DNA of 19,960 nucleotides from Candidatus Bathyarchaeia archaeon (GCA_050010515.1 JBEKKX010000039.1:1-19960), one strand, 5' to 3'. Positions 7,309-17,907 are shown, numbered from the stretch's first letter. Numbers and translations: made by a program. The notes: generated from the sequence alone by a model not told the origin.

Positions 7309-7330
7309 GTATGATAAGCATCACGAACCA
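7309..7330 (+). repeat. Degenerate copy of the 25-bp dispersed motif
   Basis: GTATGATAAGCATCACGAACCA aligns with gaps to GTATACAAAAGCATCAACGAAACCA. Intergenic. Confidence 0.4.
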
Positions 7331-7335
7331 TGTTT

Positions 7336-7896
7336 TTAAGTGCATTTTTTGCCTTTCAGAAGTGTAGTCTGCATATCAACGATTTCGGCACTATCCCTTG
7401 CCAGTGCATAATTGTCAAGCAATACGCCGTTCAACTCAAAAAACGTGTGTCCCCACGTGAAAATAGACAAAAGCTCCGTTGCCTTTTCCTTGAAACCGGC
7501 GATGTACAATGCCGCAGCAATAGCTTCAGCAGTAGTCAACTTTGTAAGTTTGCCAAAATTAACCGGGTTACCTGCAATCAAAATGGGCAAGCAGCGGCTG
7601 GTTCCCTTCACATGTCCCGATAAAACTTTCTGTGCATGTTCCCAACTGCAGTCCAGTGCGACCAAACCAAAATTTTCAACTCTCTGCCTGTCCGTAGGTG
7701 AAAATGCTATTTCAGAAAATGGATTCAGCACTATGGCGCGTTTTGGCAGAAACCGTGTCTTAGTAACTATCCTAGCTAGTCCACGGCGTTTGAGCCTCAG
7801 TCCAGTGCATTTTTTGGGGTCACATTGCGCCGCATGGTAAATAGTGATCCTTGGAAAATTAATCGTGGACGATTTTTGGTTAGGTTCATTTTCCAC
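7336..7896 (-). CDS. tsr3: 16S rRNA aminocarboxypropyltransferase Tsr3 (DUF367)
   Basis: QCDPKKCTG, LDCSW, R.LP.L.A.NPVNFGK..KLTTAEA.AAAL and F.WG.TF.ELN. Overlaps the nnr stop by 11 bp. Confidence 0.93.
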   Translation of the reverse strand: MENEPNQKSSTINFPRITIYHAAQCDPKKCTGLRLKRRGLARIVTKTRFLPKRAIVLNPFSEIAFSPTDRQRVENFGLVALDCSWEHAQKVLSGHVKGTSRCLPILIAGNPVNFGKLTKLTTAEAIAAALYIAGFKEKATELLSIFTWGHTFFELNGVLLDNYALARDSAEIVDMQTTLLKGKKCT

Positions 7897-9427
7897 TTGG
7901 TTTGCGCACCTTCAAGTGACTCATTGGGTTATCAAAAACCCGTGGAATCCAATCAATAATGTCTGTAGCGACCATGTGGAAACCAATTTCGCTTGCAACG
8001 AAGTCGCCTGCGGCACCGTTAACAAAGGCACCGGCCACTGCAGCTTCAAACGGGTCTACATGCTGAGCCATTAAACCGCCTACGATGCCGCTGAGAACGT
8101 CACCCGTTCCCCCAACAGTCATGCCTGGGTTGCCCGTGAAATTCAGCTTAATCCTTTCAGCGTCGCATATAATGTCAACTTTGCCTTTTACAAGAACGAC
8201 CGCGTTAAGTTTCTTTGCGGTTTTTTGCACTGCCAAAGCGCGTTCTTCTTGGTTTTCAGGTAAAGTTTCGCCTGTCAATATAGTGTATTCGCCAGCGTGA
8301 GGTGTAAGAACGAGTGGCACCTTTAAGGGTCTTTTGAACTTGGCGAACGCTTTCAATCCATCAGCATCCAAAAGCAGAGGTTTCCCAGCCTTCTCAACTT
8401 CTTCAATGCAGAACTTAACAAACTCTGCGGTTTCAGAGTTTAATCCTAAGCCTGGACCCATTGCAACCGCATCAACTATACTCAGGTAGGGTTTTAGTGT
8501 TTCTATGTTGCTTGGTTTCAAATTGTTACCTTCAAGCTTTATCGTTATCAAGTCAGGAGACATAGAAGAAATCGCATAAGCCGTCTTTGCAGGAGCAGCA
8601 AGATAAACAATGTCTACGCCTGTTCGCATTGCACCAAGTGAAACCAATGTGGGCGCTCCAGAGTAAACCTCGCTTCCGCCGATAACTAGCAGTCGCCCGG
8701 AATCGCCCTTATGGGCTGTTGGGCTCCGCAATTTTGTGGCAAGGTAAACATCGCCTGGACCAGCATATTGTTCTATTTCCTTGGGCAAACCTATGTCTTT
8801 GACAACTAATTCGCCAACGTACTTTTTCGCCTTGTTTAACCCCAACTTTGCCTTATGAAATATCACCGTCAAATCGGCTTTTACAGCGGTGCCTAAAACT
8901 TCGCCGGTATCTGAATCTATGCCTGTTGGAACATCAACCGCTATTTTGAAAGCATTCAAAGAATTAATGTACTCAACTACTTGGGATATCGGCGGCTTAA
9001 GTTGCCCTTTGGTTCCCGTTCCCAGCAAAGCGTCAATGGCTACGTCAGCAATCACTTTTGGTATAGCAGAACTGTCGGTTGCTTCAAGCATAGGAATTTT
9101 ATCTTGCATTGATTGAAGAATGCACCAGTTTTTCATTGCCGATTCATGGTTAATGTCACGACTTTTGCCAACAAGGATGACTGTTACACTGTAATCAGCT
9201 GCTAAAAGATGTCTAGCAGCTACAAAGCCGTCACCGCCGTTTCCGCCTAAACCGCAGAAAATAGCAATTTTTTTATCGTTGGGGAAACGCGAAATGGTTT
9301 CTTGGGCTATGTTGCGTCCAGCATTTTCCATTAGTTGAAGCAGGGATATACCATAGTATTCAGCGTTCGCTTCTAGAGCACGCATTTCTCTGCTTGAAAT
9401 GAACGAGTTTTTGTTTTTTGTTTGCAT
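7886..9427 (-). CDS. nnr: Bifunctional NAD(P)H-hydrate epimerase/dehydratase (NnrE-NnrD)
   Basis: LMENAG, GGNGGDG, DALLGTG and DVPTG in the epimerase part. HKG.SG, GPGLG, DADGL, TPHAGE and GGTGDVLSG in the dehydratase part. Confidence 0.95.
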   Translation of the reverse strand: MQTKNKNSFISSREMRALEANAEYYGISLLQLMENAGRNIAQETISRFPNDKKIAIFCGLGGNGGDGFVAARHLLAADYSVTVILVGKSRDINHESAMKNWCILQSMQDKIPMLEATDSSAIPKVIADVAIDALLGTGTKGQLKPPISQVVEYINSLNAFKIAVDVPTGIDSDTGEVLGTAVKADLTVIFHKAKLGLNKAKKYVGELVVKDIGLPKEIEQYAGPGDVYLATKLRSPTAHKGDSGRLLVIGGSEVYSGAPTLVSLGAMRTGVDIVYLAAPAKTAYAISSMSPDLITIKLEGNNLKPSNIETLKPYLSIVDAVAMGPGLGLNSETAEFVKFCIEEVEKAGKPLLLDADGLKAFAKFKRPLKVPLVLTPHAGEYTILTGETLPENQEERALAVQKTAKKLNAVVLVKGKVDIICDAERIKLNFTGNPGMTVGGTGDVLSGIVGGLMAQHVDPFEAAVAGAFVNGAAGDFVASEIGFHMVATDIIDWIPRVFDNPMSHLKVRKPSGK

Positions 9428-9485
9428 GTTTGGTGCCTTGTTATTTTATTGTTACTAGTTAAAAGATAAGTCTATCTTTAAAGTG

Positions 9486-9510
9486 GTATACAAAAGCATC
9501 AACAAAACAC
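9486..9510 (+). repeat. 25-bp dispersed intergenic motif, copy 1
   Basis: GTATACAAAAGCATCAACAAAACAC. Confidence 0.9.
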
Positions 9511-16490: not shown

Positions 16491-17180
16491 AGAACGGAAG
16501 GTTTTTGGGAAATTCTTGAGCGATTCAGTGTAGGCTGGCAGTTGGTTTATGAAGTCTTGCAGTTGAAGTACGGGTACAATGGGAACTTTATCGTAGAACT
16601 TGAATGCGCTAGGTATGAGGGATAATATGGATGGAATAAACTTGGCCTCACTCCACTTTGTGCATTCAAGTTTTAGGGCGATGTTTGGCAGCGAATCCGC
16701 TAATGCTCTTGTACGTTCTACCTGTGAATCAACGATTCTCTTCAAAGCAGAAGGTGCAATTGCATGTTGCCAATGTTTGCAGTCTATGCAGAGGACTAAG
16801 GGTTTCTTGCAGCCGACTACGTCTATTTCCCATTTGCGAACTGCATTTTTAAATCTAACGTTATTTGACACCGTGTATCCGTTGTTTTTCAATGCCAAAG
16901 CGGTAATTTCTTCAAACTCTTGCCAACAAAGCAAGTTGCTGATGTGCTCTACGTCTGCTCCTAAGGATACTGCTTTAACTGCTAGTTTGAGCCTGCTGGT
17001 GTTTTCTACTTCCACGCTGTCCTGTTTTAAATAAATGAGGCCTTCGTTTTGCAGTTTATCCAGCAATTTTCTTGCAGTTGATGATGGTATGCGGGCATCT
17101 CTATTGACACTTTCAGCTAAAACAGACCCTTTTTTCGTCAATTTAAGAAGAGAAATTACCAGATTACGCTCAACACTCAT
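16473..17180 (-). CDS. N-terminal wHTH-like domain plus Mrr/NERD-like PD-(D/E)XK nuclease
   Basis: IPSSTARKLLDKLQNEGLI is wHTH-like. WQEFEE.....L..NGY...EIDVVG...IDCKHW is the nuclease motif. Confidence 0.78.
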   Translation of the reverse strand: MSVERNLVISLLKLTKKGSVLAESVNRDARIPSSTARKLLDKLQNEGLIYLKQDSVEVENTSRLKLAVKAVSLGADVEHISNLLCWQEFEEITALALKNNGYTVSNNVRFKNAVRKWEIDVVGCKKPLVLCIDCKHWQHAIAPSALKRIVDSQVERTRALADSLPNIALKLECTKWSEAKFIPSILSLIPSAFKFYDKVPIVPVLQLQDFINQLPAYTESLKNFPKTFRSLSHNL

Positions 17181-17272
17181 GGCTAACCCTTAAGTATATT
17201 GACATAAAAGAAGCAAAAAATAGCAAATTGCATCAAAACTGAAGAAAAATTCAGCGTATGCAGCCCAGAACA

Positions 17273-17297
17273 GTATACGAAAGCATCAACCAAACAC
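17273..17297 (+). repeat. 25-bp dispersed intergenic motif, copy 5
   Basis: GTATACGAAAGCATCAACCAAACAC followed by ACTTTTTAAAGC. Confidence 0.9.
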
Positions 17298-17882
17298 ACT
17301 TTTTAAAGCCCTCTCAGATAATTTAGCTTCATCCAAGACAATTCATCGCACCTTGTTACTATGCCCTCATCTATTATCCATTGCTGAAACGTTATTTCAG
17401 ACCTTACTGAAATACCCTTCTTTCTTTTCGCAAAAAGCAAAAACAACAAGCCTTCGCCACCCGAAGCCCTCAAAAGCAAAAAAGGACATGACAATTTATC
17501 AGGCTTACGTAAATTTGACGAGAGCTTCGATGATTTTTTTAACTTTTACATGTAAAAAATAACCATTCGATCGGTTTTCGCTCATAAAAAGCTCCCACAG
17601 CAACAACTTTGCGCAAAATAGATCGATTAAAAACCTGAGAATAAGCTACTTAACCGTAAAAACGCTTGAATTAGCAGTATAAGAGGCGAATTTTAAGGCT
17701 ACCTCGCTTATTTCAAGCTTTTATAGGTCTCCCGTCATGCTTTAAAAGCTGATTTTAGCTGTCGATGCCTTTTTTTTAACTCAATTTGATTTTGCATGCG
17801 GTATGTATATTTAAGGTTCGCTGATTTTCGAGAAATTTCAGGCACTTAAGGCGTTAAACTTGAGGCAAGCAATGCTTTAAAG

Positions 17883-17907
17883 TGGTTTCGTTGATGCTTT
17901 TGTATAA
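17883..17907 (-). repeat. 25-bp dispersed intergenic motif, copy 6
   Basis: Reverse complement TTATACAAAAGCATCAACGAAACCA followed by CTTTAAAGC. Confidence 0.88.

Follow-up and report, generated by a model that had tools for sequence, protein, structure and literature searches.

What is the function of a short asymmetric word that recurs between the genes of one chromosomal locus of an uncultured archaeon? This question is raised by a stretch of 19,960 nucleotides (nt) from Candidatus Bathyarchaeia archaeon (GCA_050010515.1, JBEKKX010000039.1:1-19960), hereafter the window, which is the whole of contig C39 of genome G000 (2,379,893 bases, 66 contigs, 98.5% complete). A first-pass annotation had described here a dispersed 25-bp motif with six good copies in both orientations and a degenerate seventh, and had offered several interpretations, including a recombination site, a chromosome organisation site, a mobile or REP-like (repetitive extragenic palindrome) element and a global regulator site. 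We found that the motif is longer than described and clustered, that it keeps its places throughout the genus, and that it is accompanied by genes for small putative tyrosine recombinases in two sister families. We tentatively favour its interpretation as a recombination-type protein site of a terminus locus, orphaned or co-opted in the genus of the window.

Number, anatomy and synteny of the motif

The window was searched with GTATACAAAAGCATCAAC, allowing up to three mismatches. Six matches were obtained, at 9486-9503(+), 11706-11723(-), 13046-13063(-), 13316-13333(+), 17273-17290(+) and 17890-17907(-), with 0, 0, 1, 0, 1 and 1 mismatches, respectively. The number expected by chance is 0.02, and six matches were reached in none of 200 shuffles. 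This confirmed the six copies described previously, whose minus-strand starts (11699, 13039 and 17883) were the low ends of 25-mers, as well as the statement that their first 18 nt differ by at most one base. All six copies are located outside open reading frames (ORFs) of at least 60 amino acids (aa) and outside Pfam-supported genes, and their alignment with 60-nt flanks revealed no similarity beyond the motif itself, so that the description of intergenic copies with unrelated flanks also stands. The copies span 8.4 kb in the orientation series + - - + + -, a layout shared by G003 and other genomes, and copies 3 and 4 form an inverted pair whose GTATAC ends face inward.

The anatomy of the motif was deduced from a weight matrix built from 86 copies in 16 genomes of the genus. 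The conserved word proved to be ~31 nt long and not 25 bp, with a sharp 5' edge at a G, high information at positions 0-17, and a weaker, clade-specific 3' tail, which is MAAACACAGTTTT in the window's genus and ends in a T run. The left flank is unconserved (positions -10 to -1 carry at most 0.37 bit). The word is therefore composed of (i) a 6-7-bp core (G-K-ATAC-R), (ii) a 12-bp invariant arm (RAAGCATCNNC.), and (iii) the clade-specific tail. It is asymmetric and, as had been noticed, contains no dyad beyond GTATAC; short T runs are present on both strands. With an unconserved left flank and no second inverted arm it does not match the form of dif, as had also been stated.

A weight-matrix scan of the whole of G000, which the annotation had recommended, identified exactly eight sites, scoring 34-46 bits, while the next best match reached 15.8 bits; the reversed-sequence control gave no match of at least 14 bits. 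Six of these sites are those of the window, one is on contig C1 and one on C24. A relative, G003, rebuilt from 120 stretches into one contig of 2,354,843 bases, also carries exactly eight sites (35-48 bits), at the same eight kinds of place. The scores are all-or-none in both genomes, with none between ~16 and 34 bits. Since six of the eight G000 sites lie within 8.4 kb, the motif is clustered rather than dispersed, and such a small number of sites, mostly in one locus, led us to reject a global regulator.

All of the 24 other genomes of the genus that were examined carry the motif, in 2-13 copies each at up to two mismatches (backward-read control: 0 or 1 match per strand). To follow individual sites, the window proteins were mapped onto 15 other loci, in which the orthologous sites keep their own place and direction. 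The site at NnrDE is located about 55-60 nt upstream of the gene and points away from it, that at UPF0047/YjbQ 60-75 nt upstream and toward the gene, that at Hjc 80-100 nt upstream and toward the gene, and that at the NERD/Mrr-type winged-helix gene 90-110 nt upstream and away. The Hjc site has a partner 240-270 bp away, with the GTATAC ends facing each other, and the NERD-side site is convergent with a partner 600-750 bp further along, the two being separated by an ORF-free stretch (X). The earlier remark that orientation relative to the neighbouring genes is inconsistent is thus half right: it holds between sites, but each orthologous site keeps a fixed orientation to its gene across genomes. 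The degenerate copy at 7309 scores less than 14 bits on the weight matrix, and the same syntenic spot is occupied by an intact copy in G016, G013, G020 and G153; to judge from its position, it is a decayed ortholog of these copies, in line with the initial observation.

Because the sites are syntenic, each with a fixed place and direction, they are not ends of miniature inverted-repeat transposable elements (MITEs) or insertion sequences (ISs), nor REP elements. These candidates, raised in part by the first-pass annotation, were rejected also on account of the copy number of only eight, the non-palindromic sequence, and the lack of any presence/absence pattern.

Beyond the genus, the core GKATACRRAAGCATCNNC was detected in 128 of 151 genomes of the order (at least 90% complete), against ~8 matches in all in the control. 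It is found in 74/76 genomes of the family of the window's genus (f1), in 22/25 and 23/26 genomes of the sister families f7 and f11, respectively, and in only 3/12 genomes of a fourth family, f6. The proposal of a lineage-specific cis element, syntenic in 24/24 genomes of the genus, is thereby upheld. In other families GTATAC is replaced by GGATAC and the tail is different, these changes being common to all copies within one genome; likewise, positions 15-16 and the tail change in concert in all copies of a genome. The inverted pair survives everywhere, recurs in many genera, and is the sole motif unit in some of them; as the oldest unit it has a spacing of 240-340 bp. UPF0047, ABC-FtsX and the NERD-type gene stay neighbours of the motif in both f1 and f7.

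Chromosomal position and small recombinases

G000 has two cdc6 genes, on C24 and C25, and none is present in the window. In G003, three canonical origin recognition boxes (ORBs; a TTCCAGTAGAAAC-type dyad then GGGGTGC) are located directly upstream of cdc6-1, at 2,167,801-2,168,268 (L151:9007-9474), and this region is likely the oriC of the genus. Since these ORBs stand beside cdc6-1 and are unlike the motif, the origin is placed there and the motif is not an ORB, as the first-pass annotation had already judged. Upstream of cdc6-2 in G003 (~750 bp), two 33-nt direct repeats were observed (L063:14715-14789).

The motif cluster lies about half a genome away from cdc6-1: at 51.0% of the genome in G003, 51.6% in G014 (both f1), 50.7% in G040 (f7), and about 49% in G138 (another genus of f1), these four closed or near-closed genomes being related and amounting to roughly one or two independent observations. 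The two out-of-cluster sites of G003, at 2,137,131(+) and 2,219,113(-), lie on either side of cdc6-1, at distances of 30 kb and 51 kb, and are both directed toward it. Such a pair of sites flanking oriC and pointing toward cdc6-1 is also present in G014, G148 and G124.

Clustering near a skew switch had been suggested as a check, and in G003 the strongest strand-polarity switch was found 1-10 kb from the cluster. The most skewed words (CAAA, AAAC, GAAA, AAAG, AAAA) have their cumulative maxima at 972,142-981,140, and the 950-1000-kb bin is the fullest in the genome, with 36 of 200 extremes of the 100 most skewed words. When the genome was split into halves by strand bias, gene convergence was best at 926 kb, and the cluster (963-971 kb) ranked 2 of 1178 positions. 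Plain GC skew is too weak to read. At the cluster, orientation-corrected skew at third codon positions (GC3) has its minimum, while strand bias and AT-rich words have their maximum. As these signs are opposite, the sign cannot separate origin from terminus, and weight was therefore put on gene convergence and on the location of ORBs elsewhere. Taken together, the cluster appears to mark a conserved locus at or next to the replication terminus in these Bathyarchaeia. Integrase-like genes were also seen within 30 kb on both sides of the G003 cluster (933-943 kb and 997-998 kb), as is often the case near replication termini.

In f7, a 197-aa ORF (Rec197) was identified in the gap between the inverted pair and the ABC gene. 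Its match to Pfam Phage_integrase is below the cut-off (E=3.6e-4), its profile matches the Pyrococcus Xer structure PDB 4a8e with E=9e-4, and it keeps the R...HxxR...W...Y residues. The structural model is of low confidence (predicted local distance difference test, pLDDT, 58), and its top Foldseek matches, which are tyrosine recombinases only, serve as supporting evidence only. This weak but concordant evidence from sequence and model suggests that Rec197 is a tyrosine recombinase. A small recombinase gene is present in 13 of the 14 f7 loci examined. Rec197 adjoins the pair in nine of the 14; in five of these nine, 12-21 nt separate its stop codon from the motif 3' end, and in the remaining four the gene lies 180-380 nt downstream in the direction of the motif. 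The gene was found in both orientations. In one genus, the decaying last 80 codons of a recombinase gene stand beside the motif, opposite to the adjoining full gene (L166:2245-2484; also L033 and L167); this C-terminal fragment is the trace of an inversion with partial duplication.

Four further f7 loci carry a 238-aa ORF (Rec238) inside the pair, which is then 1.47 kb wide. Rec238 has the same residue signature as Rec197 and no detectable similarity to it. In the two f11 loci examined, the pair encloses a 225-aa ORF (Rec225; partial match to the XerA model, E=2e-6) and a 191-aa ORF (Rec191; 37% identical to Rec197 in alignment); a third f11 genome, G076, has a recombinase inside the pair by coordinates, which brings the f11 total to 3/3. 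Small recombinases of at least four divergent types, 190-240 aa in length, are thus found at the pair in two sister families.

Of the 151 genomes of the order, only one exceeded the cut-off of the XerA equivalog model (NF040815); the best G000 match reached 59 bits, the cut-off being 220. Other tyrosine-recombinase matches in the order are patchy and look like mobile-element integrases. The Hjc family model found no match in three f7 genomes (G040, G030 and G111; 92-99% complete), whereas the f1 and f11 genomes tested each have a single Hjc gene, which belongs to the motif locus.

A single type of rearrangement was observed at the locus. In three genomes (G014, G005 and G024), the entire stretch from one outermost inverted copy to the other (copies 1 and 6 in the window) is turned round with respect to the two flanks, the breakpoints being no more than ~70 nt away from these copies.

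Genes and non-coding stretches around the motif

The motif copies and the neighbouring features are listed in Table 1. The 3' end of copy 1 faces the 3' end of an AsnC-type gene (9574-9867, minus strand), and the arrangement of copy 2 with UPF0047/YjbQ is also kept in another family of the order. The Hjc gene is the sole Holliday-junction resolvase gene found in G000.

Table 1. Motif copies and neighbouring features in the window, with the two G000 sites on other contigs
Feature	Position	Strand	Description
Decayed seventh copy	7309..7329	+	between methyltransferase gene and Tsr3 gene
Motif copy 1	9486..9516	+	44.5 bits; 59 nt upstream of NnrDE start (9427), pointing away from NnrDE
Motif copy 2	11693..11723	-	46.4 bits; starts 85 nt upstream of UPF0047/YjbQ start (11638), pointing toward gene
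Stretch Y	11724..13032		no convincing ORF
Motif copy 3	13033..13063	-	36.3 bits; left member of inverted pair; points into ORF-free stretch Y (1.3 kb)
Interval between inverted pair	13064..13315		252 bp; no ORF; ~70% conserved within genus
Motif copy 4	13316..13346	+	42.6 bits; right member of inverted pair; starts 103 nt upstream of Hjc start (13419)
Hjc gene	13419..13853	+	first gene of Hjc-ABC-FtsX unit after copy 4
Winged-helix and PD-(D/E)xK (NERD/Mrr_cat) nuclease-like gene	16473..17180	-	single-copy; neighbours motif locus across order
Motif copy 5	17273..17303	+	46.4 bits; 93 nt upstream of NERD/Mrr-type winged-helix nuclease gene start (17180), pointing away into stretch X
Stretch X	17304..17876		no ORF; bounded by convergent motif copies
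Motif copy 6	17877..17907	-	34.7 bits; far end of stretch X, convergent with copy 5
Seventh G000 site	C1:113836	+	starts ~95 nt upstream of glutamate dehydrogenase gene, points toward gene, TATA-like box between
Eighth G000 site	C24:34194	-	17 nt behind rpS19 stop codon, between convergent genes

The interval between the inverted pair contains three CACCAG-like words with a 10-nt period (13281-13305), just upstream of copy 4, which are conserved across the genus. Related GGTGA/TCACC words fill the corresponding interval in other families. The CACCAG-like words may be sites for a second protein.

Stretch Y includes a non-coding block at 12560-12800 (core ~12655-12750), conserved in 14 of 16 other loci (15 of genus g1, and G153 of genus g37). 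The block contains the TATA-like CATATAAG and the invariant words CGAAAA, TTTTTCG and CTTCGAG, and has neither an ORF nor an Rfam match; it may be a small RNA of no known family or a regulatory region. Two conserved blocks on the same strand were identified in stretch X (~17534-17582 and 17801-17836), each composed of an AT-rich TATA-like word and then TTCG-N6-7-TTTCG, and the former contains the palindrome TTTTACATGTAAAA. Scans of the window for tRNAs and Rfam families returned nothing at the gathering threshold, and a relaxed Rfam search (E up to 5) of 11700-13350 and 17200-19960 gave only a chance-level lysM-Prevotella match.

Several further observations concern the window and its surroundings. 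A 50-60-nt repeat at 12911-12972 occurs in ~25 copies (74-96% identical, both strands) on many G000 contigs and in none on G003; it explains the five-fold rise in depth and the numerous loose contig ends observed here in metagenome contigs, and could be a small MITE-like element unrelated to the motif. A DUF772 transposase-domain fragment (E=1.8e-6) at 84-371 and 127-414, at the start of the contig, is probably the remnant of an IS that broke the assembly. The DNA of the window was found in peat and wetland metagenomes, and the atlas taxa assign the organism to Bathyarchaeota. Around the eighth site, the ribosomal gene string L3-L4-L23-L2-S19 stops after S19 (G000 C24:30849-35349; G003 2,135,644-2,139,453); it is followed by a convergent block (a 142-aa gene of no known function, S27ae and S24e) with the motif copy at the junction, and the L22 gene of G000 is on contig C15.

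Candidate functions and comparison with known systems

The first-pass suggestion of a recombination or chromosome organisation site gained support from the position opposite cdc6-1, the polarity switch, and the recombinases at the pair in two sister families. The reading that we hold to be possible, and prefer with due reserve, is that of a recombination-type protein site at the terminus locus, orphaned or co-opted in the window's genus. A core with one conserved arm, which is the anatomy of an asymmetric tyrosine-recombinase crossover site, an inverted pair with recombinase genes in two families, and the lack of XerA point to a recombination-type site family, and so do the low number of copies with all-or-none scores, the location at the terminus and an inversion that ends at the outer copies. 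The word would be the recognition site of a sequence-specific DNA-binding protein, marking a locus at or beside the replication terminus, and in this order, which lacks XerA, the motif family would supply the cis site for a recombination module residing at the terminus; the recombinases of the sister families may, judging from their genes, bind or cut the word. In the window's genus, the recombinase gene would have gone and the number of sites would have risen to six within 8.4 kb, with one more on each side of oriC. These sites may be cut by some unrecognised enzyme or, more likely, kept as binding sites just upstream of the promoters of the locus. The missing enzyme and the promoter-proximal places argue for a function as binding sites of a host protein in this genus, perhaps that of an operator.

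A more far-reaching scenario, which we regard as improbable, is that the order replaced XerA/dif by an inverted asymmetric 31-bp pair with a private mini tyrosine recombinase, as in f7 and f11. In the window's family, the recombinase would then have been lost, the sole Hjc gene would have moved into its operon place, and a six-site array would have arisen at the point where forks meet, with two sentinels round oriC. Chromosome finishing and separation would be recombinase-free, in a manner new for archaea, by site-directed junction resolution and/or polar arrest of forks and transcription.

Several results weigh against a recombination site at the terminus. The terminus position rests on four related genomes and one rebuilt genome; in G003 the second polarity switch is at 1.8-1.9 Mb and not at cdc6-1 (2.17 Mb), and of two closed genomes of f6, in which family the motif is rare, G077 has 41% and G080 4% of its genome between the locus and cdc6-1. 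No homolog of the four small recombinases was detected in G000 or G003 by tblastn and hidden Markov models, 16 loci of f1 and the six-frame translations of eight such loci gave none either, and the order-wide search for small recombinases gave 0/28 in the window's genus. Among the integrase-like ORFs of G000, none is conserved in G003 except for a patchy 439-aa ORF (21/151 genomes of the order, 3/28 of the genus), and the search for a hidden recombinase returned, besides these, only one weak ORF, on C51, which is not conserved. The interval between the pair was never inverted, having the same orientation in 19/19 comparable genome pairs, and only one type of rearrangement was seen among 16 genomes. 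Four DNA runs compared with the locus gave assembled contigs only; those of run X4 pass straight through copies 1, 2, 5 and 6 in the reference arrangement, although assembled contigs hide rare forms. A few contig joints at motif positions have short sides (21-58 nt) and 90% likeness, probably derive from other strains or from the motif itself, and were not used. Finally, 6 of 9 site classes are located 55-125 nt from a start codon, and this distance, like the fixed orientation of each orthologous site to its gene, suits a regulatory site.

The last two points lead to a reading that we consider somewhat unlikely, namely that the word is the operator or upstream activating site of one transcription factor controlling a small clustered regulon of salvage, repair and house-cleaning genes. 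Its members would be UPF0047/YjbQ, Hjc-ABC-FtsX, nicotinamidase and glutamate dehydrogenase, elsewhere MazG and MTAP-APRT, with the recombinases of the sister families as members or neighbours. The motif points toward UPF0047, Hjc, glutamate dehydrogenase, MazG (G024) and MTAP (G017), with a TATA-like box 6-27 nt after it, and TATA-like words are 3-5 times denser at +25 to +55 than upstream of the motif. At the Hjc site, a transcription factor B recognition element and TATA box (BRE/TATA) are conserved 19-22 nt after the end of the motif in 14 genomes. Two families retain the sites at UPF0047 and ABC, the joint change of all copies in one genome is as expected from co-evolution with one protein, and no recombinase is needed, which fits the window's genus. 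However, the gap between motif and TATA box varies for the same gene (UPF0047) from 7 to 66 nt or more across genomes, so that spacing is unconstrained, site scores are bimodal rather than forming the usual graded series, and the word, 31 nt long and asymmetric, is not a dyad. Several conserved sites have no gene to serve: those facing X and Y, where there is no ORF, and those abutting the 3' ends of convergent genes, namely rpS19 (17 nt), Tsr3 (3 nt behind it in G016), the AsnC-type gene, Rec197 and a dioxygenase-like gene. Nor would a regulon lead one to expect recombinases of four divergent types at the pair, a location antipodal to the origin, or a coincident polarity switch. Another candidate is a terminus-organising site, i.e. 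a Ter-like polar roadblock for forks and/or RNA polymerase, or a folding or segregation site, which would be bound by a host protein such as the winged-helix nuclease-like neighbour. Few, asymmetric, ~30-bp, high-information sites in both orientations lie opposite oriC and at the polarity switch, the two outside sites point toward cdc6-1 from either side, the inner four sites of the cluster follow the order of a fork trap with the inverted pair at its centre, genes of five families have their ends 3-22 nt from the 3' end of the motif, and a DNA-binding nuclease-like gene is a constant neighbour. We nevertheless think this decidedly unlikely: the series + - - + + - does not form two opposed groups, the outermost or oriC-proximal copies would block normal forks under either polarity, the 6 of 8 sites that fit are no better than chance, and the NERD-type gene is absent, by the query used, from genera that keep the motif (g24, 0/6; g20, 0/2) and present in f6 (12/12), where the motif is rare. 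A simple fork trap finds no support, as it fails under both polarities, entry being blocked or the middle unreachable. The NERD/winged-helix protein was rejected as the binder, since presence of the gene does not track the motif; a PDB sequence search with it gave no match. For Cdc6-2 there is weak evidence against such a role, in that two cdc6 genes are also present in G077 and G080 of f6.

Three other readings find less room in the data, although the readings considered here overlap in part. Selfish integrase mini-elements might land beside a word that is kept for an unrelated host reason, as at tRNA genes or dif. Four very divergent recombinase types, the occurrence of Rec197 in both orientations, the C-terminal fragment beside the motif in one genus, and the gathering of other integrase-like genes near the G003 cluster would suit such an integration hot spot, but we judge it very unlikely, given that a recombinase is nearly always present in the f7 and f11 loci, which looks like vertical inheritance, that the flanking copies are inverted whereas integration leaves direct repeats, and that no further cargo was seen and the host reason is left unexplained. 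That the motif acts in RNA, its reverse complement being a terminator or 3'-end signal or the word itself the start of non-coding RNAs from X and Y, is highly improbable: half of the copies have no transcript able to run in from the required side, no Rfam match was obtained, and no conserved promoter stands upstream of the sharp 5' edge, even though short T runs are present on both strands, the ends of several genes lie a few bases ahead of the reverse complement, and X and Y hold conserved non-coding blocks with TATA-like words. The poorest prospects of all are those of an ORB of a second origin or of ends of mobile elements (MITE, IS or REP). Inverted pairs do flank AT-rich, ORF-free DNA, each genome has two cdc6 genes, and the first impression had been that of a dispersed repeat. 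The canonical ORBs are nevertheless elsewhere and different, no cdc6 gene is near the cluster, and genes and skewed words converge there instead of diverging; as for mobile ends, eight copies with strict synteny in the genus, a sharp edge on the inner and not the outer side of the pair, and the lack of a transposase argue against them.

The finishing of replication and the resolution of dimers in archaea that lack XerA is an open question, to which the recombination-type site that we favour is relevant. The terminus predicted for this lineage, which is abundant in peat and uncultured, is marked by a 31-mer that is easy to synthesise, and the sister families supply candidate enzymes of only 190-240 aa. 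If the recombination reading is true, these would constitute a new minimal asymmetric recombinase/site pair; if the operator reading is true, a compact regulon of repair and salvage genes would be defined. With either, the site is a practical landmark for orienting Bathyarchaeia assemblies. In the titles and abstract openings of the literature on Bathyarchaeia replication origins and Bathyarchaeota tyrosine recombinases, there is no account of the motif, and there is a modest chance that it represents something new for archaeal chromosome termination.

To our knowledge, no Ter system has been described in archaea, nor any archaeal cis element of the replication terminus other than dif. In bacteria, Ter sites are roughly 23-30 bp long and located near the terminus, with the gene of the terminator protein next to an inner site. 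The motif resembles the sites of Tus in Escherichia coli or RTP in Bacillus subtilis in that a few asymmetric sites in both orientations are found near the terminus, with the gene for a DNA-binding protein beside an inner site. It differs from them in lacking a fork-trap orientation and in having six sites within 8 kb, not spread over hundreds of kb. The invertible promoter switch fimS is a segment of a few hundred bp, inverted by FimB and FimE, recombinases of ~200 aa. In both systems a segment of this size lies between inverted repeats with a ~200-aa tyrosine recombinase adjoining (here in f7); the differences are that the orientation of the segment is constant here in all comparable genome pairs, that the repeats are of 31 bp as opposed to about 9 bp, and that extra copies exist outside the pair.

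In form, the closest counterpart is the shufflon of plasmid R64 and related plasmids, with the Rci invertase. Rci differs in size from the recombinases found here in relatives, which are of about 190-240 aa. According to a published account, the sfx site has a 7-bp core between two arms of 12 bp, one variable and one conserved (PMC11852207), so that both sites are of ~31 bp, with the core and one 12-bp arm conserved and the other arm free. Both are present in about seven copies, in both orientations, over a few kb, with a tyrosine recombinase gene alongside (here in the sister families only). In contrast to the shufflon, no recombinase was found in the window's genus, the segments carry whole housekeeping genes and not alternative gene ends, no shuffling was seen in population contigs or between genomes, save the one inversion, and the site is chromosomal, terminal and archaeal.

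In place, the motif comes closest to Xer/dif. In bacteria with a single recombinase, xerS adjoins difSL. The source cited here describes dif as two 11-bp inverted arms round a 6-bp spacer, located at the terminus, and archaea without xerA were noted there (Cortez et al., 2010; PMC2958812). Whereas dif is a single site, there are 2-8 sites here (eight in both G000 and G003), each with one conserved arm, the pair being 240-1500 bp apart; moreover, G000 has no Xer-family recombinase over the cut-off, and no small recombinase was found in the window's genus. Both systems are found in the terminus region and with a tyrosine recombinase, which in the relatives is encoded at the site itself. The role filled elsewhere by the single-recombinase systems XerS/difSL and XerH/difH and by archaeal XerA/dif is vacant in this order.

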